Shown here piece by piece: positions 23,920 to 41,709 of a DNA stretch of 64,000 nucleotides. Each line of letters opens with the position of its first letter. Within the stretch, counting starts at the first letter, position 1. The position numbers and the translations under genes are program-made. This stretch comes from an uncultured Gammaproteobacteria bacterium (GTDB lineage Bacteria > Patescibacteriota > Microgenomatia > Levybacterales > UBA12049), in assembly GCA_964553245.1 (NCBI GenBank), contig CAZKJM010000001.1, positions 16,892 through 80,891 of the forward strand, given 5' to 3'. Under the pieces are notes generated by a model. It had not been told where the DNA came from and searched no databases. It worked only from the letters and a program-made list of their open reading frames with translations.

Positions 23920-23949
23920 TTGAAATTATATCAGTTTTAGCCTTATAAT
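23920..23949 (+). promoter_or_regulatory. Candidate promoter (TTGAAA-N18-TATAAT) for the C-methyltransferase gene, in a divergent intergenic region
   Basis: TTGAAA at 23920-23925. TATAAT at 23944-23949. ATG at 23969. On the opposite strand, TGaTATAAT (extended -10) lies 13 nt upstream of the GT4 ATG. Confidence 0.35.
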
Positions 23950-23968
23950 ACGATATCTTTAAACTGGA

Positions 23969-25183: not shown

Positions 25184-25892
25184 AAAATTTCATTTTAATA
25201 ACATGCAATAACGATGTAACCAACTCATTAAAATTAACATTTGATTTACCATAAATACGATAGTTCCAAGTAATTGGCACTTCAGAAATTTTAAAATTAT
25301 TTTTACTTAATTTGTATGCTATTTCCGATAATGCAATAAATCCCTTTGCTTTAATTTTTGTTTTTAATAAAAAAATTACTGCATTTCTACTATATAATCT
25401 AAATCCACTGGTATAGTCACTTATTTTTATATTTAGCCAAAAATATAAAAAGTAATTAATCAACCTACTCATTATTGTTCTATTCGGAGAAATATTATCA
25501 ATCTTACCACCTGATTTATATCGCGAGCCAATTACTAAATCGTAAGGATATACTTCAATTTCTTTAATAAATCTAGAAAATTCTTTTGGATCGTGAGCAA
25601 GATCGGAATCCATTTCAAAAATATAATCAATTTTTTTATATTTCAAAACTCTCTTAAAACCAATTAATACAGCGCTTCCTCTTCCAGATTTTTTTAACCT
25701 TGTAATCAACTCTATGTTCTTAAATTTTTTTATTATTTTCTTTATTTTTTCGTTTTCTTCCATTGCCGAATCATCAATAATTACAATTAATGCGTTTTTA
25801 AGATTCTTGTTTATTCCTGAAATTAAAATACTTATATTTTTTGACTCATTATAAGAAGGAATTACTACTGCAAAATTATTAATCTTCACCAT
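25176..25892 (-). CDS. GT2 polyprenol-phosphate sugar synthase (DPM1/GtrB-like, soluble 238 aa)
   Basis: VVIPSYNE...IIDDSAMEE...EMDSDLAHDP...GSRY...GFRL are DPM1-type motifs. Confidence 0.8.
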   Translation of the reverse strand: MVKINNFAVVIPSYNESKNISILISGINKNLKNALIVIIDDSAMEENEKIKKIIKKFKNIELITRLKKSGRGSAVLIGFKRVLKYKKIDYIFEMDSDLAHDPKEFSRFIKEIEVYPYDLVIGSRYKSGGKIDNISPNRTIMSRLINYFLYFWLNIKISDYTSGFRLYSRNAVIFLLKTKIKAKGFIALSEIAYKLSKNNFKISEVPITWNYRIYGKSNVNFNELVTSLLHVIKMKFFK

Positions 25893-27829
25893 AATTCTCC
25901 TTTGTTAACAATTTCATACAATGTAATGCTCCCTTTAAAATTATTACCTAACGAAATCTCATTAATTACTCTATCTTTATAAAATAAAGGAACTTTTGAC
26001 AAATTAATAAAATAGGGTTCATTTTTATAAGGAGTATCAAATCGGATTAATCCCGATATTGAATCATCTGTTTTTACATAAAGTATGCCATTATTATTTT
26101 TATTATAAGGCACTATCACTAACATTTTATTCTTAGAAGAAATTTTATTGCTCTTTAAATAATTGTTAAAAGCTAAGACACTATATTCATCAATGATTTT
26201 ATTGTTGTTTTTTAATACCTTTATTTTATGAACACCCTCTGAATAAGGAATTTTCGATAAGTTAACATTTAACAAAAAATTTCTATATTCATCAAACAAG
26301 ATGCCTTCTGTTTTAAAAAAGTCTTTATTTTCTTTTTTTAATACTAGATATTTGCCAATTTTTATTTCAGGGATATAATTATTAAGAATATAAGACAATT
26401 CGTTTGGAACTCTTATATATTCAGGAACTGAATCCTGTAATGATTTATTTTTTGTATTTAAAATTATTTTGTTAACATTATTTTTATTAAGATAGTCAAT
26501 CCTACTAAACTGACCTTTTAAAGTAGAACCATCATAAGTGCTTAAATAAAATGGTGGAGCTTGATTTAAAAAAGCATAAATAAAAGGATCTGAAGGAAAA
26601 CTAAAAATCTTGGCTATAATATTTTTCCTGTTAATGTAGTTAATTAAATTTGCAATATCCTTATCTTCAGAAAATATTTTATTTAGATTATTATCAACAC
26701 ATTGAATGCTATTAAGATTAGCTCTTATAAATAACCTGTTATCTGTTTTTATAATGTTAATGACGATAAAAGCAAAATTAAAAATTAAAACTAATAAAAT
26801 TAGTAAATTCCTAACTTTATTACCAATATTATAGTTTACTTTTATGTCTCTAATTATAAACGCGTATAAAATTATGCCGTAAATTATCAACTGCTCACTA
26901 ATAGATCTTAAAATGTTTTTTTGCTCAAGAATAATAATTAAGACTAACACTGAGACTTTTAATAAAAAAAACTTATCTTTGTTTCTTGTTTTTAAAATAA
27001 GTTGCAAACACAAACTTATTTCGACCAAAATAATTCCAAGGATAACATAAATATTATCTATGTTTTTAAGAGAAGGAGGAAAAGGAACTTTTGCAATTTT
27101 AGATAAATACGATAAATTTATTAAATAATCGTAGAAAGAAAATAGACTTGTTTTTGAAATTATAAAAACATAAAACGGCAAAGCGCCAATCGCTAATCCC
27201 AACGAGATATTAAATATTTTTTTAAAAGTATTAATGAACTGGCTTTTTTTGAATTTATTTAAAATATTTTTTGTAATTACAAAAAATAAAATTGAAATAT
27301 AAGAATATATTCCTGAATCAAAGAAAAGAAAAATCGTAAGACCCAAAATAATTCCAAATAAAAACTCTTTAGTTTTGCAATTTTTTTTATCGATATATAT
27401 AGTGTAAAAAATTAACATCGCTAAGGGTATCCCATATCTAATAAATTGATTTTCCATTCCTGTCAAAAAATATGATAAAAATATAAATATATAGAAAATA
27501 ACTGACACAATTCGTGACATAATTATCTTATTAATGGAGTAATAAAAAAAAGTTAAAAGCGTTGAAACTATTAAGAAAAATATCAAGCTGAATATAATAT
27601 TCTGATTTTTATAGTAAAATAACAATCCATAGGGATAAAAAATATCTACATAAGGCAATAAATTTTTAACCTGTGCGTATTGCCAAAAAATAAAATGATG
27701 TGTATCAAAATTAAAATTTTTATATAAAATACAATTATTTATTATTAAGTAAACATTTAAAATACTACTTATTAAAAAAATCGTAACTATTTCTATGTTT
27801 TTGTATAATTTATCAATTATTTTTTTCAT
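25886..27829 (-). CDS. Very large polytopic membrane protein, GT-C/YfhO-like candidate glycosyltransferase with a C-terminal extracytoplasmic domain
   Basis: 647 aa. First loop FDTHHFIFWQYAQVKNLLPYVDIFYPYGLLFYY resembles the YfhO-type D.(F/H)H...P.W....FY.P..YY motif. 14+ predicted TM. Confidence 0.5.
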   Translation of the reverse strand: MKKIIDKLYKNIEIVTIFLISSILNVYLIINNCILYKNFNFDTHHFIFWQYAQVKNLLPYVDIFYPYGLLFYYKNQNIIFSLIFFLIVSTLLTFFYYSINKIIMSRIVSVIFYIFIFLSYFLTGMENQFIRYGIPLAMLIFYTIYIDKKNCKTKEFLFGIILGLTIFLFFDSGIYSYISILFFVITKNILNKFKKSQFINTFKKIFNISLGLAIGALPFYVFIISKTSLFSFYDYLINLSYLSKIAKVPFPPSLKNIDNIYVILGIILVEISLCLQLILKTRNKDKFFLLKVSVLVLIIILEQKNILRSISEQLIIYGIILYAFIIRDIKVNYNIGNKVRNLLILLVLIFNFAFIVINIIKTDNRLFIRANLNSIQCVDNNLNKIFSEDKDIANLINYINRKNIIAKIFSFPSDPFIYAFLNQAPPFYLSTYDGSTLKGQFSRIDYLNKNNVNKIILNTKNKSLQDSVPEYIRVPNELSYILNNYIPEIKIGKYLVLKKENKDFFKTEGILFDEYRNFLLNVNLSKIPYSEGVHKIKVLKNNNKIIDEYSVLAFNNYLKSNKISSKNKMLVIVPYNKNNNGILYVKTDDSISGLIRFDTPYKNEPYFINLSKVPLFYKDRVINEISLGNNFKGSITLYEIVNKGELW

Positions 27830-28079
27830 TTTTTTTAACTAAAAACATAATAATTATCAATGAGAAAAACGGAGAAAGAATAATTAATAAAAACAACAAA
27901 TTATCAAAATTACCAGGATATCCATAATAATTAATATAACCAATTATTTTCTCTTTTCCTATTTTTTGAACTGGAAAAAAACTTCTAATTTGTCTAAGAA
28001 ATAAAACAATCAAAAACAAAAATGTGAACGTTGTAGAGAGATATTCTATAATTAGCTCTGTTGATTTTCCTTTATTCAT
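27813..28079 (-). CDS. Small 2-TM membrane protein (88 aa) overlapping the start of the large membrane protein; possible accessory subunit
   Basis: Two hydrophobic helices, TTFTFLFLIVLFL and LLFLLIILSPFFSLIIIMFLV. 17-nt overlap with the downstream gene. Confidence 0.35.
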   Translation of the reverse strand: MNKGKSTELIIEYLSTTFTFLFLIVLFLRQIRSFFPVQKIGKEKIIGYINYYGYPGNFDNLLFLLIILSPFFSLIIIMFLVKKNEKNN

Positions 28080-28117
28080 AAGGTATATTATATAAAATTA
28101 AGAGTAATAATTATACA

Positions 28118-28993
28118 ATGGCAAGAAAACCTTTAAAAAAGATACTAATATTGGGGTCTTCTGGAATGCTTGGATCAATGGTTTATGATTATTTTAAGAA
28201 AGACCATAAGTTATTCGTTGAAGCTACAACCAGAAATAAAAAAGACAAAACTAAAAGATATTTTGAAGTTAATAATTTTTTAGAAATAAAACATAAATAT
28301 TCATATTTAAAAACATATGACTATATTATTAATTGCATTGGTGCAATTAAATTTACAGAAAATCAAAAAAATATATACAATGCAATTAAAGTAAATTCAT
28401 TATTCCCTCATGAACTATCTTCATTCCTAAATAAATCTAAGACTAAAATAATTCAAATAGCAACAGATTGTGTTTTTTCTGGGAAAAACGGTGCGTATAA
28501 TGAATCTTTCGAACACGATGACTCAAGCGTTTATGGCAAAACAAAAAGCTTAGGAGAAGTAAATAACGATAATTTTTTGAATATAAGGTGTTCTATTATT
28601 GGTCCGGAAAAATTAAGAAGCAAAAATCTAATGCAATGGGTATTAAGTCAAAAAAACGATTCCGTAATACAGGGATTCTCAGATTACAAATGGAACGGAG
28701 TTACAACTCTCCAATTTGCAAAACTTTGTTCAAGTATTATCAACAGAAATATGTTTAATAAAATTAGAAAAATAAATCATACACACCACTATGTACCAAA
28801 TAACTCAACTTCTAAATATGAATTAGTAAAAATGATAAGTGAGATTTTTGAAAAAAAAATAAAAGTTATAAAAGTAAAAAAATTTAATAAGCCGATTAAC
28901 AGAACTCTTTCATCTAGATATAAAATTTTACAATTAATAACAGGAAAAAGTACAATAAAAGGAGAGGTTTTAAAACTAAAATATGAAAAATAA
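28118..28993 (+). CDS. NAD(P)-dependent sugar reductase, RmlD/CapF-N-domain-like short-chain dehydrogenase
   Basis: KILILGSSGMLGS Rossmann motif. 291 aa. Upstream of the 2-epimerase gene. Confidence 0.7.
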   Translation: MARKPLKKILILGSSGMLGSMVYDYFKKDHKLFVEATTRNKKDKTKRYFEVNNFLEIKHKYSYLKTYDYIINCIGAIKFTENQKNIYNAIKVNSLFPHELSSFLNKSKTKIIQIATDCVFSGKNGAYNESFEHDDSSVYGKTKSLGEVNNDNFLNIRCSIIGPEKLRSKNLMQWVLSQKNDSVIQGFSDYKWNGVTTLQFAKLCSSIINRNMFNKIRKINHTHHYVPNNSTSKYELVKMISEIFEKKIKVIKVKKFNKPINRTLSSRYKILQLITGKSTIKGEVLKLKYEK

Positions 28994-30182
28994 ATCACGA
29001 AAAAAAATAGCATTTGTTCTTGGAATAAGACCTGACTTGATTAGATCTGTTCTAATATTAAATCATCTTAAAAAAGCAAAAGATATTGACGTAAAACTAA
29101 TTTGGTCAGGACAAAATTATTCATACAATTTAAAAGATATTTTCTTCAAAGAATTTAATATACAAAAACCAGACATTGAACTGAATTGTAAAGGGAAAAC
29201 TGACGCTGAAATTGTTTCGAAGTTAATCGCAAATATATATCCAGTTCTGGAAAAAATGAAGCCAGAAGCGATAATTTTTTTAGGAGACACAAATACTACT
29301 GCAGGATGCATTGCTGCAGCGCAACTTAATATTCCTATTATACACATTGAAGGATGTTGGCATTCATACGACTGGAGAATGCCTGAGGAAAAATATAGAA
29401 CCATGGCAGATCATTTAGCTGATGTTATCTATACTTATGACGAAGAATATAAAAAACTTGGAATAACAGAAGGATTAAATCCAAAAAACATTATTGTCGT
29501 AAAAAATCCAATTGTAGACATACTAAATGAGTTCTATTTAAAAAGAAAAAAACTATTTCTTAAAAAAAGCACTAATATTTTTTTTAAGAAAAGAGGGATT
29601 AAAAAAAATGAATATTATCTAATGACTTGTCATAGAAGAGAAAATGTGCAATTAAAAAAATCATTCGATGCAATATTAGATTTGGTATCAAAAGCAAATT
29701 ATAAGGTTTATTTCCCTGCAAGTTACAGAACCCAAGAAATCATAAAAAATAGAAAAATAAACCTTCCAAAAAATTTAATTATGGTAAATCCTGTTGGATA
29801 TGAAGAGTTAATAATTTTATTGACTAATTCAAAAGCTGTTATAACTGATTCGGGAACATTAAATGAAGAAGCATGCGTTTTAAATATCCCTTGTATAAAT
29901 TTAAGAAAATCTACAGAAAGACCACAGGTATATGATGTAAAAAGTTCTGTAAAGTTTGATCCTGATCAATCCGAAAAATATCCATTAGACGTTATTTACA
30001 AAAAATTAAATAAAATTACAAATACAAAGTGGTCTCAAACATTAGGAGACGGAAAGGCTTCAGAAAGAATTGCTGAAGATATAATAAAAAAAGTAAGAAA
30101 TAATAATTTAAACGGTCATTTACCTAAAAATAATCATTTACCGATTAAAAGATCATTTATGGAAGATGGAATTAAAATATAA
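28983..30182 (+). CDS. UDP-N-acetylglucosamine 2-epimerase family protein (WecB/CapG/WbjD-like)
   Basis: KIAFVLGIRPDLIR...IIFLGDTNTTAGCIAAAQLNIPIIHIEG is a UDP-GlcNAc 2-epimerase fold signature. Confidence 0.8.
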   Translation: MKNKSRKKIAFVLGIRPDLIRSVLILNHLKKAKDIDVKLIWSGQNYSYNLKDIFFKEFNIQKPDIELNCKGKTDAEIVSKLIANIYPVLEKMKPEAIIFLGDTNTTAGCIAAAQLNIPIIHIEGCWHSYDWRMPEEKYRTMADHLADVIYTYDEEYKKLGITEGLNPKNIIVVKNPIVDILNEFYLKRKKLFLKKSTNIFFKKRGIKKNEYYLMTCHRRENVQLKKSFDAILDLVSKANYKVYFPASYRTQEIIKNRKINLPKNLIMVNPVGYEELIILLTNSKAVITDSGTLNEEACVLNIPCINLRKSTERPQVYDVKSSVKFDPDQSEKYPLDVIYKKLNKITNTKWSQTLGDGKASERIAEDIIKKVRNNNLNGHLPKNNHLPIKRSFMEDGIKI

Positions 30183-30894
30183 AAATTCATTAGCAGTAAT
30201 CATTCCGATGTACAATGAAGAAGCAACTGCATCAAAATGCATAGATAAAGTTGTAGAGGAAATTAAAAAATTAAAACTAAAATCTACATTGATGATTATT
30301 AATGACGGAAGCAAAGATTCAACTTTAAAAATCCTCACAGAAAAAAAGAAGATTTATAAAAATAAATTAATTATCATTAATAAAAAAAATGGCGGTTATG
30401 GATCCGCCTTAAGATTGGGCATTAAAAAAGCGATAGAATTGAAATTTGAATATTATCTTACGATGGATTCTGATCTAACGAATCCGCCAAAATATATCCC
30501 AAAACTAATAAGTGCTTTAAAAAATGGAGCGGATTGTGTTAAGGCATCAAGATATATTAAAGGAGGAAAAATGGTTAATGTGCCCTACTACAGACAGATA
30601 ATTTCTATTATTGGTAATTACTTTGCAAAATTAGCATTTAATGTAGGAATAAATGATTGCACAAATGGATTTAAAATTGTAAAGTTATCATATTTAAAAA
30701 ATATTAATTTTAAAGAAAATAATTTTTCAATTATATTGGAAGAATTATATTACCTAAAAAAAGCTGGCGCAAAATTTGCTGAGGTGCCAAATATATTGTA
30801 TTGCCGAACAAATAGTAAATCCCACTTTAATTACACTCCAAAAATATTTTATGATTACTTTAAATACGCACTACTTGCTATTTTTATAAGATAA
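30166..30894 (+). CDS. GT2 polyprenol-phosphate sugar synthase (DPM1-like, 242 aa)
   Basis: AVIIPMYNE...IINDGSKDST...MDSDLTNPP...ASRY...GFK. Confidence 0.8.
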   Translation: MELKYKNSLAVIIPMYNEEATASKCIDKVVEEIKKLKLKSTLMIINDGSKDSTLKILTEKKKIYKNKLIIINKKNGGYGSALRLGIKKAIELKFEYYLTMDSDLTNPPKYIPKLISALKNGADCVKASRYIKGGKMVNVPYYRQIISIIGNYFAKLAFNVGINDCTNGFKIVKLSYLKNINFKENNFSIILEELYYLKKAGAKFAEVPNILYCRTNSKSHFNYTPKIFYDYFKYALLAIFIR

Positions 30895-31929
30895 AAGCTT
30901 TTGTTTTAATTCAGGAATTTTTAATAATAAGTTTACAGTCTGATCAACATTAAGTCTTATTGCGTTTTCGGAAGTATATGCATCTACCTTTTCCGAATTA
31001 TTTACTTTCAATCCTTTATAGAAATATTTATTATAATCTAATCCTTGACTTTCTGGTGGAATACAATAGAAATCCTTATTTGTTGTTGATCTAAAAAGCT
31101 CTTCTTTTGTAACTAGCGTTTCGTGCATTTTTTCTCCTGCTCTTATCCCAACTTCGTAATATCCTTTTTTATAATTGAATATTTTGCACAATGCCTTAGC
31201 AAGTGTTTCCAATGTACAAGCAGGCGATTTTTTAACATATATATATCCACTTTTTCCCTGAATTAACGAATAAAGAACTAAAGAAACTGCTTCATCTAAG
31301 GGTAACAAAAATCTGGTCATTTTATAATCAGTTATCGGAAGTTTTTGATTTTTTTTAATCAAAGACAATAGATAAGGCAATACTGATCCTCTTGTAAACA
31401 ATACATTACCATATCTTACGCCACATAAAATAGTAGAACTGTTTTTATGGCTATCTTTTTTAGACTCCGCAATCATAATTTTTTCCATCATCGCTTTAGA
31501 AATGCCAATTGTATTTATTGGATAAACTGCTTTATCTGTACCTAAAACAACTACTCTTTTAACCTTATTTTCTATAGCAGAAGATAGAACATTATGTGTT
31601 CCTATAATATTTGTTTTTACAGCCTCCATTGGAAAAAATTCACAAGTCGGAACTTGTTTTAAAGCAGCTGCGTGAAACACATAGTCGACTCCTTCCATTG
31701 CATTAAGAATGTTTTCCTTTTCCCTTACGTCTCCGATAATGAATCGTAATTTTGGGTTATTAAATTTATTCCTCATATCAAACTGTTTTTTTTCGTCTCT
31801 GCTAAAAATAATTATTTTTTTAGGACTAAAATTTAATAATTTATCAACAACCGAATTCCCGAAAGAACCTGTTCCTCCAGTAATTAATATTGTCTTATTT
31901 TTTATTGATTTTTTTACCCTGCTATCCAT
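30871..31929 (-). CDS. UDP-GlcNAc 4,6-dehydratase, PseB/FlaA1/CapE/WbjB family
   Basis: ILITGGTGSFGNSVV...DVRE...FHAAALKQVPTCEFFPMEAVKTNIIGTHNVL is near-canonical for this family. 352 aa. Confidence 0.85.
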   Translation of the reverse strand: MDSRVKKSIKNKTILITGGTGSFGNSVVDKLLNFSPKKIIIFSRDEKKQFDMRNKFNNPKLRFIIGDVREKENILNAMEGVDYVFHAAALKQVPTCEFFPMEAVKTNIIGTHNVLSSAIENKVKRVVVLGTDKAVYPINTIGISKAMMEKIMIAESKKDSHKNSSTILCGVRYGNVLFTRGSVLPYLLSLIKKNQKLPITDYKMTRFLLPLDEAVSLVLYSLIQGKSGYIYVKKSPACTLETLAKALCKIFNYKKGYYEVGIRAGEKMHETLVTKEELFRSTTNKDFYCIPPESQGLDYNKYFYKGLKVNNSEKVDAYTSENAIRLNVDQTVNLLLKIPELKQKLLSYKNSK

Positions 31930-31946
31930 AAAGCTTGATAATTATA

Positions 31947-34532
31947 TTACTTTTTAATATAGATTGATAGATCGTACGGAGCAGCAATAAGACCTGAATA
32001 CATATAATTAAATGTATTTCCAAATAAGTCATAAAATTTAAAATAAGGATTAAATTCAATTTTTTTAACATAATTTTCTTTTAATAATCTTTGAATTAAA
32101 AATTTTTTTGGAGTGTTAATTTCATGTTCTAGTGCAAGTTTAGAATTGGATATAATAATAATATCGGGTAATTTTTTTACCGATTCATCTACCAAAGCAT
32201 ACTTATAATTATTAGTTAAGGTTTTACCATATTGAAAATCGTAAAATTCCAGCAATACAATATCAGGCTCAAACTGATAAATTGGTATATTTTCAATTCC
32301 TATGACTTTACCTATTGGAATGTTTTTAGTTATCCATAAAGATGCAGATCTTTGAGGAGAGTCCATATATTTTAGAGAAATCCAAAAAAATGATTCAATA
32401 AACTGAAAAACCATTATTATCAAAAATAATACAATTAACAATTTATTTAAAAATGTTTTATTAGTTTTTACACGACTAATAAATATTCCAACTATAATAA
32501 CCATAAAAGGAATTAGAACAAGCGCTCTACTACCGGTTATAAAATATCTTAAAGGTATTAAGCTAAGTAAAAATATAAATAAAGAAATTAAAATAAATAT
32601 CAGTAATTTATCTTTTTTACCCCGTACTATGTCTATTATTGTTTTTGTGAATAAGAAAAAAAATGAGATTAAAAATATTAAGTAAAAAAAGTGTCCAAAA
32701 ATTGTCGGAAAATGATAAAAAAATACATATTCAAAATATGAATATCCTAAATTTATATCTTGAGAAAAAGACGGAATGGTCACTAGATTTTGATAAAGAT
32801 ACAAGCCAATATTTTTATTACTAAATACAAAATCTGGAATTCCTAGTAAAAAAACTGCAACGATCAACAATGTCAACCCCAAAAATAAAGTTTTAAGATG
32901 ATACTTGAATTTTGAATTGAAAAATAAAAAACTAAAAATATATACAAATATAATTGGCAATACGCTAACTTTTACCGAAATGGCAACTGCACTAAAAATT
33001 CCTGCAATTATAAAATTACTGGGAGTTGGTTTAAGACAATATTTTAAAATTAGATAAATTGAAAAGGTGAACCAAAACATAAGTGCAATATCGTACTTGA
33101 AATGGTTACTTAACATTAGCCAAAGCGGGTTAAATACAAACAAAAAAATAGCAATAATTGTATTTATTTTAAGCAATTTTGAAATTTTGTTAACTATAAT
33201 TATTGTTAATAATCCGAATAACATAGTGTTCAATCTTAAAACTGTAAATATACTTGCCTGCATTGATAAATTATCTACCGCAGACTTAATAGAAAAAGGG
33301 TCAATTATTTTAAATAAAACAAAAGGAATTAAATATAAACCGGAGAGAAAAAAGTGAAACATTGTTCCATTTGCGGATCCATCCATATTTGGAGATCCGT
33401 ATTTAAAAACATTTTTTACCGATTGAAGCTGATGCCATTCGTCCATGTGATATAAAAAGGGATGCTCTGATCCTGGTATTCCCCACCCAATAACAGAAAT
33501 AAGTAACGTTGAATAGAGCAAAATTAAAAAAACTAAAAGTTTATTTTTTAAAACGATTTTTTTTATGTTAATATGTATTATGCTTTTTAATACTCCTAAT
33601 GTCGTTCCAATAATCACCGCAATATCCGAAAGTATCTGTATTACTATCGAAAAAAATAACCCCTTTTTTGTTTTAATATATTTTTTATTTTTATTTATTA
33701 TTAAAAAAATATAAAAAAGAAAAAATAAAATTAAAGTAAATATTGGAAATAGTGACTTATATAAATAAGATAAAATTAATAAGTAAAAAGCTAAAAAGTA
33801 TCTTAAATATAAATAAAATATTGTTGGTCTAAAATAATGCATTTCCCCATCACCAAAAGCAAATCTATAAAACATTTTAAAAGACTGTTTTAAATTGCTT
33901 CTCGGAATCCAGTTAACAATTGCGTTTTTGGCAAAAACAATTTTTGCATTGTATTTTTTTAATCTAATTGCAAAATCGTAATCTTCATTATGACTTAAGT
34001 TATTATTAAACCCTGATATTTTTTCCCATATTCTTTTTTTAAACGCAATTGATCTTGTAGCAGGTAAAAAATTTTCCTTATCTATTTTATTGGACATTAC
34101 TAATACATATGGAACTAGTGCTTTTTGTAATTCGTTTTTTGGTAATCCTTTATAATACCCAGAAACAACGTCAATCGATTTATCTTTAAATGGAGCCGTT
34201 ATATTCTTAACCCAATTTTTATCCAAAACACAACCTGCGTCTGTACAAAGAATTATTTCTCCTTTCGCTTTTTTAATAGCAGCATTTCTACCAATAGATC
34301 TATTTCCTTTCACTTTTATCAGTTTAATTTTTATAATATTTTTGTATTCATTGGCTTTTTTAATAATTAAATTACATGTATTGTCTGTACTTAATCCGTC
34401 AGCAATAATGAATTCATCCGGTATAATAGTTTGGGAAACAACAGATTTAATTAATTTTTCTATTGTTTCTTCTTCGTTAAAAACCGTAATAATTAAGGAT
34501 TTCGTTATCCGTTTGTTTTTTTTCATTTCCAA
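31947..34532 (-). CDS. Fusion protein: N-terminal GT2 domain plus ~600-aa polytopic GT-C-like membrane domain
   Basis: 861 aa. N-terminal LIITVFNEEETIEKLIKSV...IIADGLSTDNT...CTDAGC (GT2). Membrane part carries the loop HPFLYHMDEWHQL (DE motif). Confidence 0.7.
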   Translation of the reverse strand: MEMKKNKRITKSLIITVFNEEETIEKLIKSVVSQTIIPDEFIIADGLSTDNTCNLIIKKANEYKNIIKIKLIKVKGNRSIGRNAAIKKAKGEIILCTDAGCVLDKNWVKNITAPFKDKSIDVVSGYYKGLPKNELQKALVPYVLVMSNKIDKENFLPATRSIAFKKRIWEKISGFNNNLSHNEDYDFAIRLKKYNAKIVFAKNAIVNWIPRSNLKQSFKMFYRFAFGDGEMHYFRPTIFYLYLRYFLAFYLLILSYLYKSLFPIFTLILFFLFYIFLIINKNKKYIKTKKGLFFSIVIQILSDIAVIIGTTLGVLKSIIHINIKKIVLKNKLLVFLILLYSTLLISVIGWGIPGSEHPFLYHMDEWHQLQSVKNVFKYGSPNMDGSANGTMFHFFLSGLYLIPFVLFKIIDPFSIKSAVDNLSMQASIFTVLRLNTMLFGLLTIIIVNKISKLLKINTIIAIFLFVFNPLWLMLSNHFKYDIALMFWFTFSIYLILKYCLKPTPSNFIIAGIFSAVAISVKVSVLPIIFVYIFSFLFFNSKFKYHLKTLFLGLTLLIVAVFLLGIPDFVFSNKNIGLYLYQNLVTIPSFSQDINLGYSYFEYVFFYHFPTIFGHFFYLIFLISFFFLFTKTIIDIVRGKKDKLLIFILISLFIFLLSLIPLRYFITGSRALVLIPFMVIIVGIFISRVKTNKTFLNKLLIVLFLIIMVFQFIESFFWISLKYMDSPQRSASLWITKNIPIGKVIGIENIPIYQFEPDIVLLEFYDFQYGKTLTNNYKYALVDESVKKLPDIIIISNSKLALEHEINTPKKFLIQRLLKENYVKKIEFNPYFKFYDLFGNTFNYMYSGLIAAPYDLSIYIKK

Positions 34533-34572
34533 AATTATACCACTAAATAAGCATATAATAAATTTAATTGGC

Positions 34573-34602
34573 TTGAAAAATTAAAGAAAAAATAACTATA
34601 AT
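34573..34602 (+). promoter_or_regulatory. Promoter TTGAAA-N18-TATAAT, 6 nt upstream of ATG 34609 (leaderless transcript predicted)
   Basis: TTGAAA at 34573-34578. TATAAT at 34597-34602. Confidence 0.4.
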
Positions 34603-34608
34603 ACAACA

Positions 34609-36456
34609 ATGCTGGAACTATTTGCATCCTTAATTAACAACGTTATTAACAACTTAAGGTTTTTAACTCAGGATTTTATTGGTATTCAAATAAATTACAC
34701 ATATATCGTTAACGTATTTTTTTCGTTTTTACTTTCTTTATTTCTTTTGCCTTTTATTTTTTTAACAGGTATTAAGATAAGAAAATTGTTTTTTAAAAGC
34801 GTGTCTGAATCAACATACAAGTATTTAATTGATTTTTCATTGGGATATATCTTTATTTCATCTTTAATAGGAATACTTGGATTCGTATCATTACTTTATA
34901 GGAATTATTTACTTTTAATATTTATGTTTATATTTATAATTTCATTATTTCATTTTAGAACATCATTTATTTATTTAAATAAACTGATTTTTTACTTTAA
35001 ATCCAGCTTGAAAGACGTATATAAAAATAAGTTTGTTTTTACATTCTTGTTCTTGTTTATTTTATTAGCAATAGTAAATTTAATAAATTTAGAAACAAGG
35101 GAAGATCAATATCATATAGATTTTGCGAAAATGTATCTTCAAAATAACACGATAATGATCGAACCAAAGGAACAGCTCGAGGTTTCCGGAGCACCGATGC
35201 TTTCTGAAATGTATTACGTAATTGGATTAACGTTCAACTTAATGGAATTTGCCAGATTTAATCACTTTTACTTTTATATTTTAATTTTAATAATATTAAT
35301 TGAATTTTCTAAAAATAAAAAAAATAAATTTGCAATCTACGCACCAATAATATTTGCAAGCGCGCCGGTAATAATAAAAGAAACCTCATCTTCATATGTT
35401 GATTTTCAATGGATTTTTTGTTTTATTCTTGCTGCGTTTATCATAAATCAAAAATTTAAACACAATTTAATAATAGCTGGAATTATTACAGGAGGAATGC
35501 TTGCAGGAAAAATGTGGACCATTCCTTTTTTAAGCGTTTATATTTTTTATATAGTCCTATTAAATCGGAAAAATAAATTTTTAGATACAATCAAAAAAAT
35601 ATTTATATTTACATTTTTTGCGTTTTTAATTTCTTCTTTATGGTATTTAAGATCATACTTATTAACAGGAACTCCGATTTTCCCCGTTATGATTAATCAA
35701 AGCAATAATGTAGTCTCATTTGCATCTAAATTTGATAGATACATTGGGGTAAATTTTCCTTTTATAAATATTTTTTCTTATTTCAATGTCTATAGTCCGC
35801 TTTTTTATTATGGGTTAATTTTGTTTTTTTATAAATTCAAAAAGAACTTTTCTGTATTAATCAAAAATGATATTTTCCTTTTTCTTTTTTTAACTTTTTT
35901 ATTATTTATTTTTATTCACTATCCTTTTGGAAGATACACAATGGGAATTTACGTTTTATTTTCAATTTTTTCATCTATAGGGATAAATAATTTCCATCTT
36001 AAATTTAGGAATGGAAAATATATAACCGGGATAATTTTATTACTTATATTTTCTTATTATTTCTTAAATTCATTAATGCAATTGCCATATGCAATCGGCT
36101 TTGCTAACGAAAATAAATATTTAACAAGAGTTTTATCCAGAGATGGATCAAGCTATTATAATTTTGATAATAAATTTGAAAAACATTTTAATAAGAATGA
36201 TTGCATTGCAACCTATAAAATATTCGGATTTTATTATGCAAATTTTTGTTATTCAGATATAAATTTTATTTTAAATAAAGAAGAAAAGTCTTTAAATACG
36301 CTGAAAAAGAAAGGTTTTACAAAATTATTAACTAAAATGGAAAACGCAGAAGGTTTTTGTAAAACTGAAAGAATTAAAAACTGTAATAATAAAAGTTTTA
36401 AATTAATAGATAGTTATATGGGAGTAAATAATTATTATCTATACGAATTAAAATAA
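34609..36456 (+). CDS. Large polytopic membrane protein (615 aa), GT-C-like candidate
   Basis: More than 12 TM. Early loop LINLETREDQYHIDFAKMYL carries an acidic pair. Tandem with a similar gene. Confidence 0.5.
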   Translation: MLELFASLINNVINNLRFLTQDFIGIQINYTYIVNVFFSFLLSLFLLPFIFLTGIKIRKLFFKSVSESTYKYLIDFSLGYIFISSLIGILGFVSLLYRNYLLLIFMFIFIISLFHFRTSFIYLNKLIFYFKSSLKDVYKNKFVFTFLFLFILLAIVNLINLETREDQYHIDFAKMYLQNNTIMIEPKEQLEVSGAPMLSEMYYVIGLTFNLMEFARFNHFYFYILILIILIEFSKNKKNKFAIYAPIIFASAPVIIKETSSSYVDFQWIFCFILAAFIINQKFKHNLIIAGIITGGMLAGKMWTIPFLSVYIFYIVLLNRKNKFLDTIKKIFIFTFFAFLISSLWYLRSYLLTGTPIFPVMINQSNNVVSFASKFDRYIGVNFPFINIFSYFNVYSPLFYYGLILFFYKFKKNFSVLIKNDIFLFLFLTFLLFIFIHYPFGRYTMGIYVLFSIFSSIGINNFHLKFRNGKYITGIILLLIFSYYFLNSLMQLPYAIGFANENKYLTRVLSRDGSSYYNFDNKFEKHFNKNDCIATYKIFGFYYANFCYSDINFILNKEEKSLNTLKKKGFTKLLTKMENAEGFCKTERIKNCNNKSFKLIDSYMGVNNYYLYELK

Positions 36457-36457
36457 T

Positions 36458-38215
36458 ATGCCAAGTAATTATCATATGGTTGTTGTTAATCTTATTGCAT
36501 CTGCAATTCTTGGAATCGGTATATTGTTTTACAAATTTATTTATCCAAAGAAAAAAATAAATTTGTTTATTCTTTTATTATTAATATCAATATTACCTAT
36601 AATTAGTATTTTTAGACCGGGTACTTATGAAAGCGGAGACTTCAATATACATATTTATAGAATAATTACATTTTACAATTCACTAAAAGAAGGTATATTT
36701 ATGCCTTCATGGGCAGCCGATTTAAATGCAACATATGGAAATCCGTTGTTTATATTTAATTATAATTTACCCTATTATATTATTTCCCTATTTCATTTTT
36801 TCGGATTTAGTTTTATAACAAGTACTAAATTATACTTAGCATTTGTAATGTACTTTTCCGGAATAGCGATGTATCTATGGTTTAATAAACTTACAGGAAA
36901 TAAATTAGCTTCATTTACAGCAAGCATATTTTATTTATTTAGCCCATATCATTTAATTGACGTACATTTTAGGGCAACGCTAGGTGAATCTACAATTTTT
37001 TTTCTTCTCCCAATGTTTTTTTATACAATTATTAATTATTATGATCATAAAAAAGTTAATTATCTAATTTACATATGTTTAACAAGCGCATTGTTATTCT
37101 TAGCTCATCCATTGCTTGCTATACCTTCAATCGGTATTGGTTTTTTATATTCCCTTTTTATATTTATAACAAACAGGAAAACGGTCTTGCTAATTAATGT
37201 TTTCCTCTCTCTCGTTCTTGGCGTATTAGGAGCTTCATATCTTTGGATTCCATTTTTATTATTTTCGGGTTTCACTTTTTCAAATGGAACTCCTAATTTA
37301 TATTTTTATCCATTCAGCTATTTATTTTATTCTCCTTGGAGGCTAGGATTTCTTTTTCAGGGACCAAAAGGAGAGTTGCAGCTTATTATTGGATATACTC
37401 AAATATTTGTTGTTATTATTAGTTTAATTATTTTATGTAAGAATTTAATTTATTCAAAAATTAGACATGATTATATTTTTTGGATAAGTATTTTTTTGCT
37501 TTTAGTATTTTTTTTAAGTCCTATTTCAATTTTTATTTGGATCTTTTTTCCGTTATTATGGATGCTCTTACCCTATGGAAGACTCCTATTGCTTATATCC
37601 TTTTCTACATCAATGATTGCTGGTTATTTTACAATATTTTGTCAAAAATTTAAGAGAGGACAAGGTTTAATATTAATATTAATTTTAATCACAATTCTCT
37701 ATTCTATATTAAATTGGGGACACAGAAGGGTTATAGAAGACATAAACGATGATTATTTGATTAAAAATGTACCATACAGCACTCTAAACGAAGGTTTAAC
37801 AGCGTATTTTTTAAACAACAAGTGGGCTGATGTTAATAATTTTTGGTTTGATAAGATACCCAAAAATCATCTTGAAATAATTAATGGAGTTGGTTATGTA
37901 AAGCAAATTAAAAGAAATTCAATCAGTCACAGATATGAAGTCAATGCTAAAACATCACTAAAAGTAAAAGAAAATACATTATTCTTTCCAGGTTGGCAAT
38001 TAAGAATAGGTAATAAAATAATCCCCATTTATCCGGGAGAAAGAGGGATAATTAATGCTGATTTGCCAATGGGAAAATATGAAATTGAATTAAAATATGA
38101 AGATATTTTTATCTATAAGTTATCTAAATTTATTGCTATATTTTTTTTCTCTGTATTAATATTCATGATCTTAATTTATAGCATTTCAAGTCGAAGATTT
38201 AACTCCAAACCATAA
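36458..38215 (+). CDS. Large polytopic membrane protein (585 aa), YfhO-like GT-C candidate
   Basis: YESGDFNIHIYRIITFYNSLKEGIFMPSWAADLNATYGNPLFIFNYNLPYY matches the YfhO-family N-terminal loop pattern D.FH..R....G..P.W....G.P.F.FY.PL.YY. Confidence 0.5.
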   Translation: MPSNYHMVVVNLIASAILGIGILFYKFIYPKKKINLFILLLLISILPIISIFRPGTYESGDFNIHIYRIITFYNSLKEGIFMPSWAADLNATYGNPLFIFNYNLPYYIISLFHFFGFSFITSTKLYLAFVMYFSGIAMYLWFNKLTGNKLASFTASIFYLFSPYHLIDVHFRATLGESTIFFLLPMFFYTIINYYDHKKVNYLIYICLTSALLFLAHPLLAIPSIGIGFLYSLFIFITNRKTVLLINVFLSLVLGVLGASYLWIPFLLFSGFTFSNGTPNLYFYPFSYLFYSPWRLGFLFQGPKGELQLIIGYTQIFVVIISLIILCKNLIYSKIRHDYIFWISIFLLLVFFLSPISIFIWIFFPLLWMLLPYGRLLLLISFSTSMIAGYFTIFCQKFKRGQGLILILILITILYSILNWGHRRVIEDINDDYLIKNVPYSTLNEGLTAYFLNNKWADVNNFWFDKIPKNHLEIINGVGYVKQIKRNSISHRYEVNAKTSLKVKENTLFFPGWQLRIGNKIIPIYPGERGIINADLPMGKYEIELKYEDIFIYKLSKFIAIFFFSVLIFMILIYSISSRRFNSKP

Positions 38216-39088
38216 CATTTCTCCTGGAATGTAAAAAGTCCACTTTTTTTTAAAAATAAAAAAAGGTTTTATAAACTTCATTATTTTATGTATATGTTTG
38301 TATCTACTCAGTGAATTATCAAGTAAATCGAAAAGAAAGACCACAGGATAAGTCTTTGTAAATAAATGGTTTACTCCAAATTTTTTTGCCAGCAGAGTCA
38401 AGCTTTTATGCGAAAAATATTGAATATGTTGTCCTTGCCAATACCACCAATTATGACCAAGTAATTTACTACTAAAAGCATTAACATCTCCTGTCCAAAT
38501 AATAATTAAGCCTCCGGGTTTTAATAATTTACTTATGTACTTCATCTCTATTGAAGGATTTTCGAAATGCTCAATTACCCCAAATAGAGTTACGATATCA
38601 TATCTATTCTTGATTTTTTTTGATAATGTTTTTAAAAGCATTCTGTGTACTTTTATTTTGTTTTTTTTTGCAATCTTTGAAGACCAATTAGATATTTCCA
38701 AGCCTTCTACTTTGTATCCATAACTTCGTGCAACATTTAAGAATTCTCCTGTTGCACATCCTATGTCAAGTATTTTGCCTGATGTAATTTGGCGCTTAAT
38801 TATTGGTAATATTTTTTTTGCTGATTCCCTAATTGACTCAAGATAGTTCAGATACTCTTTATCCTCAACATCTTTATAGTTCCTATACATGTTACGGGGA
38901 AGCGGATTACAAAAAACGTGAGAGCAATTCATGCACATTACCGATCGAAATGTTTTTCCGGAATCAGGCGTTTTAACATATATAAATGATAATTTTTTAA
39001 TATCGATTGTTGATGGGTATAATTCTTTTGTCTCAGTAGATTTACATATCGGACATGAATCTAATTTCATAAATTTATTTCTTGGCAA
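38186..39088 (-). CDS. Class I SAM-dependent methyltransferase with N-terminal Cys4 zinc ribbon
   Basis: CPICKST...CMNCSHVFCNP. ILDIGCATGEF SAM motif I. Confidence 0.7.
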   Translation of the reverse strand: MPRNKFMKLDSCPICKSTETKELYPSTIDIKKLSFIYVKTPDSGKTFRSVMCMNCSHVFCNPLPRNMYRNYKDVEDKEYLNYLESIRESAKKILPIIKRQITSGKILDIGCATGEFLNVARSYGYKVEGLEISNWSSKIAKKNKIKVHRMLLKTLSKKIKNRYDIVTLFGVIEHFENPSIEMKYISKLLKPGGLIIIWTGDVNAFSSKLLGHNWWYWQGQHIQYFSHKSLTLLAKKFGVNHLFTKTYPVVFLFDLLDNSLSRYKHIHKIMKFIKPFFIFKKKWTFYIPGEMLWFGVKSST

Positions 39089-39857
39089 CTAGAAAAATAT
39101 TTGTACCATTATCTTGTTCATCAACATATTTTAAATATTTTCTAACCAGATAATTTCTGACAAAATCTGGTTTAAAAACCATTCTCTTTCCAAAAATTAC
39201 TTTTAGAATTTGCGATGGCCAAGATGTAAGTATAAATAAGTCATAAATCTTGGTTACATTTGGGGAAACGATATTTTCCATTTTTACTATTTTAAATCCG
39301 TTTTTTTCAAAAAGTTTTTTCCATTCATTATTGTTCAATAATATGTGCCTCTTAAAAAAACTGTTATATTTTTTTGTTAAATATTTACTAATAGATTTTA
39401 ATCCGTATTTTTTAAGCATTGGTCTATAAAAAGTATTATTGTCTACCCTATCTGTTTCTATAGATGCAATTATCTTTCCACCTGGTTTTAATACTCGATA
39501 ACACTCTTTTAATAATTTATTAGAATTTTTTATGTGCTCAAGAGTACTGATTGATATAATTGTATAAAATGTATTATCCGCAAACGGCATCTTCCTTGCA
39601 TCGGCTAAAATTAATTTTTTGTATTTATTAGTTTTTCCTGCCATTGATAAGTCTCTTTTACTAATATCTAACCCAATATCGATTTTTTTATCCGTAAAAC
39701 ACTGCATAAATTCGCCAAATCCACAACCTAAATCAATAACAGGAGCTTTTATTTTTTCATTTGCTAAATATTTTGCTTCAACACTTCTCCATATAGCTAC
39801 GCTAAGAGGGGTAATTCTTAAAAACCTACGAAAATATTTTTCTGATTTTGAATTCAT
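39075..39857 (-). CDS. Class I SAM-dependent methyltransferase (Methyltransf_11-like)
   Basis: VIDLGCGFGEF motif I. LKPGGKII motif. Confidence 0.75.
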   Translation of the reverse strand: MNSKSEKYFRRFLRITPLSVAIWRSVEAKYLANEKIKAPVIDLGCGFGEFMQCFTDKKIDIGLDISKRDLSMAGKTNKYKKLILADARKMPFADNTFYTIISISTLEHIKNSNKLLKECYRVLKPGGKIIASIETDRVDNNTFYRPMLKKYGLKSISKYLTKKYNSFFKRHILLNNNEWKKLFEKNGFKIVKMENIVSPNVTKIYDLFILTSWPSQILKVIFGKRMVFKPDFVRNYLVRKYLKYVDEQDNGTNIFLVAKK

Positions 39858-39907
39858 TTAATTTTACAAATTTAAATTCTAACAGATGAAATTAACTGTG
39901 TAAAGAA

Positions 39908-40984
39908 TTACTGAGTATTTTTCCAAAGCTTTAAGTAGATATCTGCAATATCTGTCCATGTTTTATCCATTACCCATTTATATCCATTATCGACCATATT
40001 CTTATACTTAAAATTATTATTCACAACGTCCATTATTCCCCTAGATAATTCTTTTGAATTTTTAAAAATAAGTATAAAGTTTTTAAATGGAGTATTCACT
40101 AAGTAATCTTTTTTAATTCCATTGTTATACAAAGCAAATACAATCTTTTTTGACACTAAAGACTCAAATATGCCTAAGTATCTAGAAACAAAAATAAATT
40201 TATAATTTTTAATTTGCTCGTCTGCATTTGAAATAAAACCCTTAAATTGAATTTTTAACTTATTATTTTTAGCAAAAATTTTCGCTGCTTTTCCTAATGA
40301 ACCATCGCCATAAACATCGAGTGCAATATTTATTTTTTTTGATTTTAATATTTTTATAGCTTTTAGATAATCCATTATTCCTGTTTCTTTTTCCAATCTA
40401 CCAATAAACATTGCTTTATTAAAAGCTACAGATTTATCTTTAATTTTAATGTATTTTACAGCTCCGTATATTATATGATTTGGTTTTGTCCTATACCACT
40501 TTTCATAAAAGTTTCCAACGCAAATATTTCCCTTTGTTAGCTTTTCTGCAAGCTTATGCATAAAAATCGATCTCTTGTTAGGAATTGAGTTTCCTTCATA
40601 TCCGTGAAACGTAACAAAAACCTTTTTATTAGGGTAAATGAATCTAAACGGAAGATACCAATAAAAAATATCGTGACAATGAATAATATCCGCGTCTTTA
40701 ATAATATTTTTAATTTTAAATAATTCTTTCCATGCTTTAAGTTTTTCTAACTTATTTACCTTACCGTTGTTTATATAAATTATTCTTATTTTATCGATTT
40801 CTCCCGTCATCTTATCACTTAAAAGCATTGATTGATAATCCGTGTTTTGAGAAAAACTCTCTTTTGAAGTAATTACAGTAATACTATGACCTTTTTTAAT
40901 AAGTTCTTTTCCTAATTCCAAACAATGTTTCTCTACTCCACCAATATGGGGGTAAAAATACCTACACAAAAAAATAATTTTCAT
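39908..40984 (-). CDS. Glycosyltransferase family 4 (GT-B)
   Basis: MKIIFLCRYFYPHIGGVEKHCLELGKELIKKGHSITVIT is a GT4 N-terminal signature. 358 aa. Confidence 0.8.
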   Translation of the reverse strand: MKIIFLCRYFYPHIGGVEKHCLELGKELIKKGHSITVITSKESFSQNTDYQSMLLSDKMTGEIDKIRIIYINNGKVNKLEKLKAWKELFKIKNIIKDADIIHCHDIFYWYLPFRFIYPNKKVFVTFHGYEGNSIPNKRSIFMHKLAEKLTKGNICVGNFYEKWYRTKPNHIIYGAVKYIKIKDKSVAFNKAMFIGRLEKETGIMDYLKAIKILKSKKINIALDVYGDGSLGKAAKIFAKNNKLKIQFKGFISNADEQIKNYKFIFVSRYLGIFESLVSKKIVFALYNNGIKKDYLVNTPFKNFILIFKNSKELSRGIMDVVNNNFKYKNMVDNGYKWVMDKTWTDIADIYLKLWKNTQ

Positions 40985-41709
40985 TTCTTCCTAGCAACAA
41001 TAATAAAATTAGATTCACCGAATAGATAAACAAGCAAATTGTCTATTAATGTTAAGGAATCTGAGAAAATAAATTTTATAAATTTTATACCTTTTCCTGC
41101 GACACTATTAGTAAATAGAAAATTTCGAAGTATCCCTTCAACCTTTTTTACTTCTATAATATTAAAACCATTCCTTTCTATTTTATTACATAATTCATCG
41201 ATCGAATATCGTCTTAAATGACCAACCTTTTTATCGAATTTTTTTAATAGGCCCATTCTATAAAGCGGTGCACTTTTGGATGGAGCAGACAAAAACAGTA
41301 AACCATTTTTATCTAACATTTTTTTTATTTTTTTCAGAACATATTCATCTTTTTTTAAATGCTCTATCACCTCTGTTAATAAAATTAAATTATATCTACC
41401 AGCAATGTATTGTTTGGGAAAATCAATAACACGAAAATTTACATATTCACTTAGGTTTAAATATCTTGCAGTTGATGAGCTAGCCCTAATTGCATTTATT
41501 GATATATCTACTCCCAAGACCTTAATGCCTTTACTTCCTAAATATAAACTCAATGTTCCCGCCCCACATCCTATATCCAATGCGGTGGCAATACTTGCAA
41601 TATATTTATCTAAAACTTCCAAAATTAATCGATATGTAAAATCTTTTTTATTTATTATTTTCTTTTGAACCGATGTGTATTTATGAAAAAGGTTATAATT
41701 TATTTCCAT
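40981..41709 (-). CDS. Class I SAM-dependent methyltransferase
   Basis: ALDIGCGAGTLS motif I. LKKDGLLFLSAP-like motif. Confidence 0.75.
   Translation of the reverse strand: MEINYNLFHKYTSVQKKIINKKDFTYRLILEVLDKYIASIATALDIGCGAGTLSLYLGSKGIKVLGVDISINAIRASSSTARYLNLSEYVNFRVIDFPKQYIAGRYNLILLTEVIEHLKKDEYVLKKIKKMLDKNGLLFLSAPSKSAPLYRMGLLKKFDKKVGHLRRYSIDELCNKIERNGFNIIEVKKVEGILRNFLFTNSVAGKGIKFIKFIFSDSLTLIDNLLVYLFGESNFIIVARKK

Follow-up and report, generated by a model that had tools for sequence, protein, structure and literature searches.

Described systems that combine a cytoplasmic GT2 with a polytopic GT-C enzyme carrying its catalytic acid in the first external loop include GtrA/GtrB/GtrC, ArnC/ArnT, CsbB/GtcA/YfhO, GacI/GacL, and PgfS with its GT-C partners. 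Production of a polyprenyl-phosphate sugar by the GT2 for use by the GT-C has been established for GacI/GacL (bioRxiv 10.1101/180810) and also for lipoteichoic acid glycosylation (PMC7389260). Three-component systems of this kind lie in surface-glycan loci and are accompanied by undecaprenyl-phosphate machinery. To our knowledge, the passage of polyprenyl-phosphate sugars across the membrane to GT-C enzymes is poorly understood, the flippase step being the weakest link.

We analyzed a 64,000-nucleotide window – the whole stretch of DNA under study – that contains a glycan locus of 26 kb and 20 genes (15779..41709). The locus is syntenic across Levybacteria, with synteny in 79 related loci, and holds three genes that we call A, B, and C. 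It shares with the systems described above the cytoplasmic GT2, the polytopic GT-C with a first-external-loop acid, the surface-glycan setting, and the undecaprenyl-phosphate machinery: MraY, MurG, and FtsW are encoded in the window, so a polyprenyl-phosphate carrier is available. It differs from them in that GT2 and GT-C are one polypeptide here, or separate genes in sister genomes; in that as many as five genes of the GT-C type (A, B, C, E, and F) and the polytopic protein D occupy a single locus; and in that no GtrA-type flippase was found among the window's ORFs of 120 aa or longer, the search covering the window alone. Protein A is a fusion variant of an already known system. In the literature that we searched, neither a GT2–GT-C fusion nor this locus in Patescibacteria was described, though such absence is not proof that they are undescribed.

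The locus also contains a MOP flippase, a Wzy_C ligase-like gene, and two GT4s, all conserved, as well as three small GT2s, a sugar C-methyltransferase, three SAM methyltransferases, and a three-gene cassette for nucleotide-sugar modification. No priming phosphoglycosyl transferase was found in it. GT2 and GT-C are encoded together in this locus: they are fused in A and in E, a second GT2-PMT_2 fusion (19402-21594), and adjacent pairs are formed with D (25886-27829, 647 aa), which adjoins the small GT2 at 25176-25892, and with the PMT_2 gene F (16963-18567; 32.0 bits to PMT_2, above the cut-off of 26.1), which adjoins the small GT2 at 18662-19405. An exhaustive search returned 368 relatives of D; hhalign against the profiles of B and C gave no link between D and GT-C, and longer D-like proteins lack a Pfam domain. 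Two of the small GT2s (25176-25892 and 30166-30894) are Dpm1/ArnC/PpgS-like, with ArnC, AglJ, PpgS, and PgfS as best matches, and an ArnC model scores 52-68 bits on the small GT2s of the locus.

We found ORFs A, B, and C at the coordinates and on the strands given by the initial annotation, along with every peptide quoted there: LIITVFNEEETIEKL, IIADGLSTDNT, and CTDAGC in A, and GDFNIHIYRIITF...GIFMPSWAADLNATYGNPLFIFNYNLPYY in C. Public records label the three as glycosyltransferases or hypothetical proteins. Their lengths of 585-861 codons in local DNA of ~25% GC, together with numerous full-length homologues at 40-80% identity (over 340 for A, around 35 for B, and over 500 for C), mark them as genuine genes and not ORFs that arose by chance, and all three proteins are members of known superfamilies. 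Gene A (31947..34532, minus strand) encodes 861 aa when counted from the TTG of the listed ORF; the ATG two codons in, at 34526, gives 859 aa and is where the public gene call starts and where the true start probably lies. Genes B (34609..36456, plus strand, 615 aa) and C (36458..38215, plus strand, 585 aa) are separated by a 1-nt gap (36456/36458) and are both divergent from A, with a 76 bp intergenic spacer between A and B (34533..34608). The strongest sigma-70-like match in the region (TTGAAA-18-TATAAT, 34573-34602, plus strand) falls in this spacer and is the sole hit that we singled out from a promoter and terminator scan whose counts were not above chance in AT-rich DNA.

The three genes are not equally conserved. 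Gene C lies directly beside A, or with only B between them, in 23 of the 43 loci with enough flank, and at another place in the locus in a further 13; C is part of the conserved locus core, and the divergent C–A pair is conserved. Gene B is an accessory gene, which roughly one in four related loci carries. As a lead only, B tends to co-occur with a Dpm1/GtrB-like small GT2 (11/15 loci vs 10/64; Fisher p 3e-5, uncorrected for kinship).

Protein A had been read as a GT2 N-terminus fused to a GT-C domain, and both parts exceed their Pfam cut-offs: PF00535 at 74.4 bits (cut-off 23.3, residues 12-125) and PMT_2 (PF13231) at 31.6 bits (cut-off 26.1, residues 430-560). The AlphaFold model of A is a confident one, with a pLDDT of 87.6 and a pTM of 0.84. 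Residues 11-230 (33843..34502, minus strand) comprise a GT-A-fold GT2 catalytic domain, predicted to be cytoplasmic, and an interface helix. This domain has the conserved Asp residues of a DxD-like motif and a catalytic base, and D45, D50, D98, E183-D184 (NED), and R223-F224 (in MFYRF) are invariant. Three hydrophobic helices complete the GT2 module in the AF2 model (residues 236-319; 33576..33827, minus strand) and carry the invariant polar residues K281, N282, Y285, Q299, and D303. Stand-alone GT2 modules terminate just past the equivalent segment.

By structural comparison, the GT2 part of A is nearest to membrane 'synthase-like' GT2s (hyaluronan synthase and PcManGT), and the best curated-family matches of the domain are the non-Dpm1 families TIGR04283, EpsD, MftF, and PgaC. 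GtrB, ArnC, and DPMS are not among its closest structural neighbors, and an ArnC model scores 20.3 bits on the module against a cut-off of 529, which places it outside the GtrB/ArnC/DPMS type. The module also differs from PcManGT, the Pyrobaculum calidifontis membrane mannosyltransferase (PDB 6yv7), and from class I hyaluronan synthase/BcsA: its QxxRW equivalent is degenerate (MFYRF), its hydrophobic helices number only three, and the module is joined to a GT-C enzyme. A search of solved-structure sequences with the A profile returned GT2 domains only.

Residues 323-737 of A (32322..33566, minus strand) form a PMT/ArnT-like membrane module with the GT-C fold and ~11-12 helices in the AF2 model, which with the three helices of the GT2 module makes the original estimate of ~15 TM helices roughly correct. 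The acidic DE loop reported alongside it is real: D364 and E365 of HMDEWH are invariant in 30 family members and, in the AF2 model, immediately follow helix 1 of the module. This pair (33438..33443, minus strand; HMDEWHQLQSV) lies where the helix of the first extracytoplasmic loop begins and resembles the PMT 'DE' motif. We predict that D364-E365 is the GT-C catalytic motif of A, and by the positive-inside rule its loop would face outward. The relationship to Pmt1/Pmt2/Pmt4 (GT39) and ArnT (GT83) is close – PMT_2 matches above its cut-off, and the best GT-C structural neighbors are Pmt4 and Pmt1 – but the GT-C of A differs from all of these by its fusion to a GT2 domain. Unlike the PMTs, A lacks a MIR domain and instead has a 124-residue alpha/beta domain after its last TM helix (residues 738-861; 31950..32321, minus strand; AF2 secondary structure). 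This domain is predicted to be extracytoplasmic, a location that follows from the topology we infer, and is a candidate acceptor-binding domain.

Protein B is a polytopic, PMT_2-related GT-C protein. It has no Pfam hit itself, and 12 of its 24 orthologues match PMT_2 (PF13231), with E down to 4.7e-7. BLASTP aligns B with F at 28% identity over 450 aa (E 1e-22), and hhalign of the B profile against the GT-C domain of A gave a probability of 89% over 347 columns (E 2e-6). The latter sets ETREDQYH of B (residues 162-169; 35092..35115, plus strand), in which E162, E165, D166, Y168, and H169 are invariant, against the loop-1 motif YHMDEWH of A.

Protein C scores 39.4 bits against PF10131 (PTPS_related; cut-off 26.4), which is matched by 29 of 30 family members and has been placed in the GT-C clan (PMC7801869). 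It has a GT-C fold, and its top 21 structural neighbors are all GT-C enzymes. The sequence ESGD (residues 58-61; 36629..36640, plus strand) opens the helix of the first loop; S59, G60, and D61 are invariant, and D61 is the predicted catalytic acid. In the AF2 model, a beta-sandwich domain (residues 472-547; 37871..38098, plus strand) precedes the final TM helix (551-580). Because we found no characterized PF10131 member, the family name is uninformative on the donor or acceptor of C. The initial annotation had called C YfhO-like, a label that holds weakly for the family – 14 of 30 relatives, or about half, have weak hits to YfhO (PF09586; best E 3.3e-5) – but not for the protein in the window, which has none at E up to 1.

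The same annotation treated B and C as tandem paralogs. Neither BLASTP nor profile comparison relates them, and the nearest paralog of B is F, 16 kb off. In profile-profile comparison C matched A weakly (48%) and B not at all, and the reading as paralogs was therefore rejected.

Fused and split forms of A alternate among related genomes. The full A-type fusion is present in 53 of the 79 related loci, and in 10 loci A is split into a GT2 module (287-388 aa, 41-54% identical) and a GT-C (~475-560 aa) encoded in the same locus. Two other kinds of GT2–GT-C fusion occur in this locus: an E-type GT2 fused to an A-type GT-C (L075 and L077), and a Dpm1/GtrB-like small GT2 fused to a PMT/PMT_2 domain (L001, L004, L047, and L053). 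The alternation of fused and split A, together with these other fusions, suggests that a cytoplasmic GT2 and an outward GT-C function as a pair. Some loci, such as L053 and L070, have an A-type GT-C module without an A-type GT2.

We tentatively favor a reading in which A is a bifunctional membrane glycosyltransferase with active sites on opposite membrane faces, its GT2 making a polyprenyl-phosphate sugar for its own GT-C, with B and C as further outside transferases. The GT2, nucleotide-sugar-dependent and anchored by the interface helix and three hydrophobic helices, would put a sugar on polyprenyl (undecaprenyl) phosphate at the inner leaflet. The lipid-linked sugar would then arrive at the outer leaflet, where the fused GT-C would pass it to an extracytoplasmic acceptor – possibly a glycan of the wall or surface, or else a surface protein. 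The PMT_2-like B and the PF10131 protein C, divergently expressed from A, would be other GT-Cs adding other residues outside the cell, and the sequential extracytoplasmic transfers originally proposed for the three proteins are plausible. Here we infer the polyprenyl-phosphate acceptor of the GT2, the coupling of donor to acceptor, and all sugar and acceptor identities.

Several observations run against this reading. The GT2 of A falls outside the canonical polyprenyl-phosphate sugar synthases, and two small Dpm1/ArnC-like GT2s could supply lipid-linked donors, freeing the GT2 of A for another role. In addition, no GtrA-type flippase was found in the window, and the A-type GT-C sometimes occurs without its GT2.

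An alternative that we consider unlikely, though still a serious contender, is that the fusion joins consecutive steps on one substrate rather than a donor–acceptor pair. The GT2 of A would be an inner-face transferase that uses a nucleotide sugar to extend a lipid-linked glycan or to glycosylate a membrane lipid; the MOP flippase would export the product, which the GT-C would decorate with a polyprenyl-phosphate sugar supplied by one of the small Dpm1-like GT2s. The non-Dpm1 family matches of the GT2 and its structural proximity to PcManGT and hyaluronan synthase favor this arrangement, as do the Dpm1/ArnC/PpgS-like character of the small GT2s at 25176-25892 and 30166-30894 and the conservation of the MOP flippase, Wzy_C ligase-like gene, and two GT4s. 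However, a priming phosphoglycosyl transferase is missing from the locus, and K281, N282, Y285, Q299, and D303 are no less compatible with a lipid-phosphate acceptor than with another kind. Sister genomes, moreover, fuse a genuinely Dpm1-like GT2 to a PMT-type GT-C, so fusion of a donor synthase to a GT-C does happen in this locus.

A more ambitious form of the bifunctional reading, which we regard as improbable, makes A a self-contained machine that loads, flips, and transfers. Its GT2 would charge undecaprenyl phosphate, and K281, N282, Y285, Q299, and D303 together with the GT-C helices would carry the lipid-linked sugar through the membrane to the active site of the GT-C, dispensing with a separate GtrA-type flippase.

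Less probable again is that the GT2 of A is a processive, synthase-like polymerase, with the GT-C helices providing or extending an export path or attaching the polymer to an acceptor. Pfam Glyco_trans_2_3 and Glyco_tranf_2_3 both match A, and we take its order NED ... P ... MFYRF to resemble the TED ... QxxRW of hyaluronan and cellulose synthases. Yet the QxxRW equivalent is degenerate, M220 standing for Q and F224 for W, both invariant; the three hydrophobic helices of the stand-alone GT2 module do not suffice for a polymer channel; and PcManGT, the closest small relative, is not known to be processive. The idea that A, B, and C are unrelated transporters or permeases has almost no probability left: the lack of a Pfam hit for B itself and of any match for B or C in profile searches of solved-structure sequences would allow it, but it is refuted by the PMT_2 matches of B orthologues, the exclusively GT-C structural neighbors of C, and the resemblance of the C-terminal module of A to Pmt4 and Pmt1. 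The homology of B to PMT_2 proteins and the invariant first-loop acids of all three (A, D364/E365; B, E165/D166; C, D61) also count against it, and the original view of B and C as GT-C-type enzymes stands.

The A family provides a natural, well-folded GT2–GT-C fusion, and since the same fusion is also found split in sister genomes, the coupling of GT2 to GT-C is open to experimental study. Were A to load, flip, and transfer on its own, the repeated independent GT2–GT-C fusions would represent substrate channelling in minimal-genome cells. Levybacteria-type CPR bacteria, which are thought to live attached to other cells, give a conserved 26-kb locus of their tiny genomes to surface glycosylation. 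That conservation, together with about five GT-C enzymes in the locus, points to an elaborate, strain-variable surface glycan.

We identified A, a minus-strand gene encoding a GT2-GT-C fusion (31947-34532; 861 codons counted from a TTG), and two plus-strand genes of GT-C type that diverge from it, B (34609-36456; 615 aa) and C (36458-38215; 585 aa). The initial annotation had placed all three ORFs exactly, and every peptide motif that it quoted is found in proteins of the window. A single nucleotide separates B from C, and 76 bp lie between A and the pair. In DNA of ~25% GC, stop-free frames this long cannot have arisen by chance, and full-length homologues are numerous for each. The true start of A is probably the ATG two codons in (34526), since the gene starts there in public annotation and an identical public protein is 859 aa long. 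In the protein collection, A and B have 100% identity matches that lie on a contig of 561,761 bp. For C, the closest match is only 70% identical, though C adjoins A and B on the same DNA – probably the result of a different gene call or a word-index limitation.

Profile searches matched residues 12-125 of A to Glycos_transf_2 (74.4 bits) and residues 430-560 to PMT_2 (31.6 bits against a cut-off of 26.1). Across an alignment of 30 family members, invariant residues include D45, D50, D98, and E183-D184 in the GT2 domain; M220, R223, and F224 in the helix that follows; K281, N282, Y285, Q299, and D303 in the three hydrophobic helices beyond it; and D364-E365 within the motif HMDEWHQLQSV. An AlphaFold model generated from this alignment is confident (pLDDT 87.6, pTM 0.84), and structural comparison places the GT2 part clearly nearer hyaluronan synthase/PcManGT than GtrB (16.8), DPMS (16.5), or ArnC (16.1). 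Two linkers, KKYIKTKK (283-290) and IKKIVLKNK (323-331), are strongly positive, and the second coincides with the point at which stand-alone GT-C modules start. From these features we infer that the GT2/GT-C junction is cytoplasmic and that the DE loop – the first extracytoplasmic loop of the GT-C module, which carries D364-E365 – lies outside.

B has no Pfam match of its own, and 12 of 24 B orthologues match PMT_2. B shares 28% identity across 450 residues (E 1e-22) with F, a PMT_2 protein of the window (16963-18567), and hhalign matched its profile to the GT-C module of A over 347 columns (89%, E 2e-6), with the invariant REDQYH of B aligned to YHMDEWH of A. The C-terminal soluble region of B contains two invariant cysteines, C584 and C592, which suggest a disulfide and hence a putatively extracytoplasmic C-terminal domain. 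C matches PF10131 (PTPS_related) over its cut-off (39.4 bits), as do 29 of 30 members of its family, and PF10131 belongs to GT-C clan CL0111 (PMC7801869). In the structure model of C (pLDDT 82.1, pTM 0.85), the GT-C core is succeeded by a beta-sandwich (residues 472-547) and then by one last transmembrane helix; D61, within ESGD, is invariant. The earlier description of C as YfhO-like holds in part for the family, 14 of 30 members of which have weak YfhO matches (best E 3e-5), but not for C itself, which has none at E up to 1. B and C had also been read as tandem paralogues. This is not supported: BLASTP of B against C finds nothing, hhalign gives the pair 0.6% probability, and the two have only the superfamily fold in common. 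The profile match between C and A is likewise weak (48%). A role for A, B, and C as transporters was refuted.

The three genes are part of a 26-kb glycan locus of 20 genes (15779-41709) that lies between tRNA-Thr and tRNA-Val, in a window whose housekeeping genes encode ATP synthase, DnaE, GatAB, FtsZ/FtsA, MurG, FtsW, MraY, and Mur ligases. The locus begins with a Wzy_C/O-antigen-ligase-like gene, F, a small GT2, a second GT2-PMT_2 fusion that we call E (19402-21594, minus strand; 730 aa; Glycos_transf_2 79.3 bits, PMT_2 41.9 bits), a MOP flippase, and a GT4. These are followed by a sugar C-methyltransferase-like gene (23969-25183, plus strand) with Methyltransf_14 and zinc-binding Methyltransf_13 domains, a small GT2 (25176-25892), and D, a 647-aa polytopic protein (25886-27829, minus strand). 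The C-methyltransferase-like gene usually sits beside the small GT2 in related loci (60-76% identity), a hint that the glycan includes a C-methylated sugar. D overlaps the start of the small GT2 by 7 nt, has 368 representative homologues with D42 invariant in the first loop, matches nothing in Pfam or NCBIfam, and has no link to GT-C by profile comparison; it may represent an unrecognised extracytoplasmic transferase family. In other genomes D accompanies the nucleotide-sugar cassette. That cassette (28118-31929) encodes an RmlD-like reductase, a UDP-GlcNAc 2-epimerase-family enzyme, an embedded Dpm1-like small GT2 (30166-30894), and a CapD/Polysacc_synt_2 dehydratase – a set that resembles a 6-deoxy-hexosamine (FucNAc-type) pathway – and it shifts as one block between genomes. 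For the small GT2s at 25176-25892 and 30166-30894, the best-matching models are ArnC, AglJ, PpgS, PgfS, and Dol-P hexose transferase, each match falling short of the curated cut-off; these two genes are thus the Dpm1/GtrB-like candidates of the locus. Directly downstream of C, the minus strand (38186-41709) carries a GT4 with SAM-dependent methyltransferases on both sides, two on one and a third on the other (300, 260, and 242 aa); which of them are present differs among related loci, suggestive of methylated sugars or of variable capping of the glycan. The window showed neither a priming phosphoglycosyl transferase nor a GtrA-type flippase, and its sole Glycos_transf_4 protein is the MraY-like gene product (55822-56835).

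Two genes outside the locus deserve mention. One, at its edge (41836-43644, plus strand) and also found in several related loci, encodes 602 aa with a Peptidase_C39_2 domain; the N-terminal region of this protein weakly resembles a 3-keto-disaccharide hydrolase (lectin-type), and its C-terminus matches FIMAH weakly. The other, a cyclic-di-GMP signalling gene located between gatB and dnaE (4886-5620, plus strand), encodes a stand-alone diguanylate cyclase domain of the GGDEF type (144.5 bits) and is notable in a bacterium of this kind.

The A family occurs full-length in Patescibacteria, mostly Levybacteria (99% coverage, 43-53% identity). Scanning species-representative genomes yielded 79 related loci, whose ORFs were called and labelled by BLASTP against the window proteins. 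These loci are syntenic: typically, one strand carries ParB, signal peptidase, (the C39-like protein), GT4, methyltransferases, C, and (B), and the other A, a variable middle, flippase, GT4, E, small GT2, F, and a Wzy-like gene. Upstream sequence exceeds 4.5 kb for 43 of 53 full-length A fusions; among these 43, B then C diverge from A in 12, C is directly divergent in 11, C lies elsewhere in the locus in 13, and C is absent from 7. This distribution makes C a core partner of A and B an accessory gene. Orthologues of the small GT2 at 25176-25892 co-occur with B (11 of 15 versus 10 of 64 loci, a count that ignores phylogeny).

A is split in ten loci. There the GT2 module (287-388 aa) stops just beyond its third hydrophobic helix, with K281, N282, Y285, Q299, and D303 all retained, and a separate GT-C module (~475-560 aa) is encoded in the same locus. 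Between the halves lie an unlabelled 1.65-kb stretch (locus L066), D (L059, L061, and L063), or the whole sugar-precursor cassette (L062). Two more fusion types were found in the same locus. In L075 and L077, an E-type GT2 and an A-type GT-C form one protein. A third kind of GT2-GT-C fusion, at the same syntenic locus, joins a Dpm1-like small GT2 to a PMT/PMT_2 domain in proteins of 752-764 aa (L001:12597-14855, L047:12546-14804, L004:2627-4885, and L053:9947-12241; Pfam was run on L001 and L047), and its GT2s are orthologues of 25176-25892 (57-67% identity). The GT2 domains of E and A give no BLASTP match, so these two fusions look independent. We argue from the alternation of fused and split forms, together with repeated independent fusion, that in this lineage an outward-facing GT-C and a cytoplasmic GT2 form a functional pair.

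Such pairs have precedent. In GacI/GacL, a GT2-made polyprenyl-phosphate sugar is flipped and then used by a GT-C (10.1101/180810), as likewise in lipoteichoic acid glycosylation (PMC7389260). Our best explanation of A, held tentatively, is that its GT2 module would make a polyprenyl-phosphate sugar, which would be flipped across the membrane and consumed by its own GT-C module; the predicted topology, with the DE loop outside, is consistent with this scheme. The main weakness of this explanation is that the GT2 of A is not GtrB/ArnC-like, by sequence or structure, and canonical Dpm1-like GT2s lie nearby. The leading alternative, which we consider somewhat less likely, is that the GT2 of A acts on the same glycoconjugate in another step at the inner face. 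With a degenerate QxxRW equivalent and too few helices, the module is unlikely to be a processive synthase.

Public annotation names these proteins 'glycosyltransferase' or 'hypothetical protein', and all domains of A, B, and C fall within known superfamilies. Literature searches found neither a GT2-GT-C fusion nor this locus described and, to our knowledge, none has been characterised. We rate A as a fused version of a known GT2/GT-C extracytoplasmic glycosylation system. The A family offers a structural and biochemical handle on the coupling of lipid-linked sugar synthesis to GT-C transfer, and the locus supports the view that CPR bacteria have elaborate surface glycosylation.
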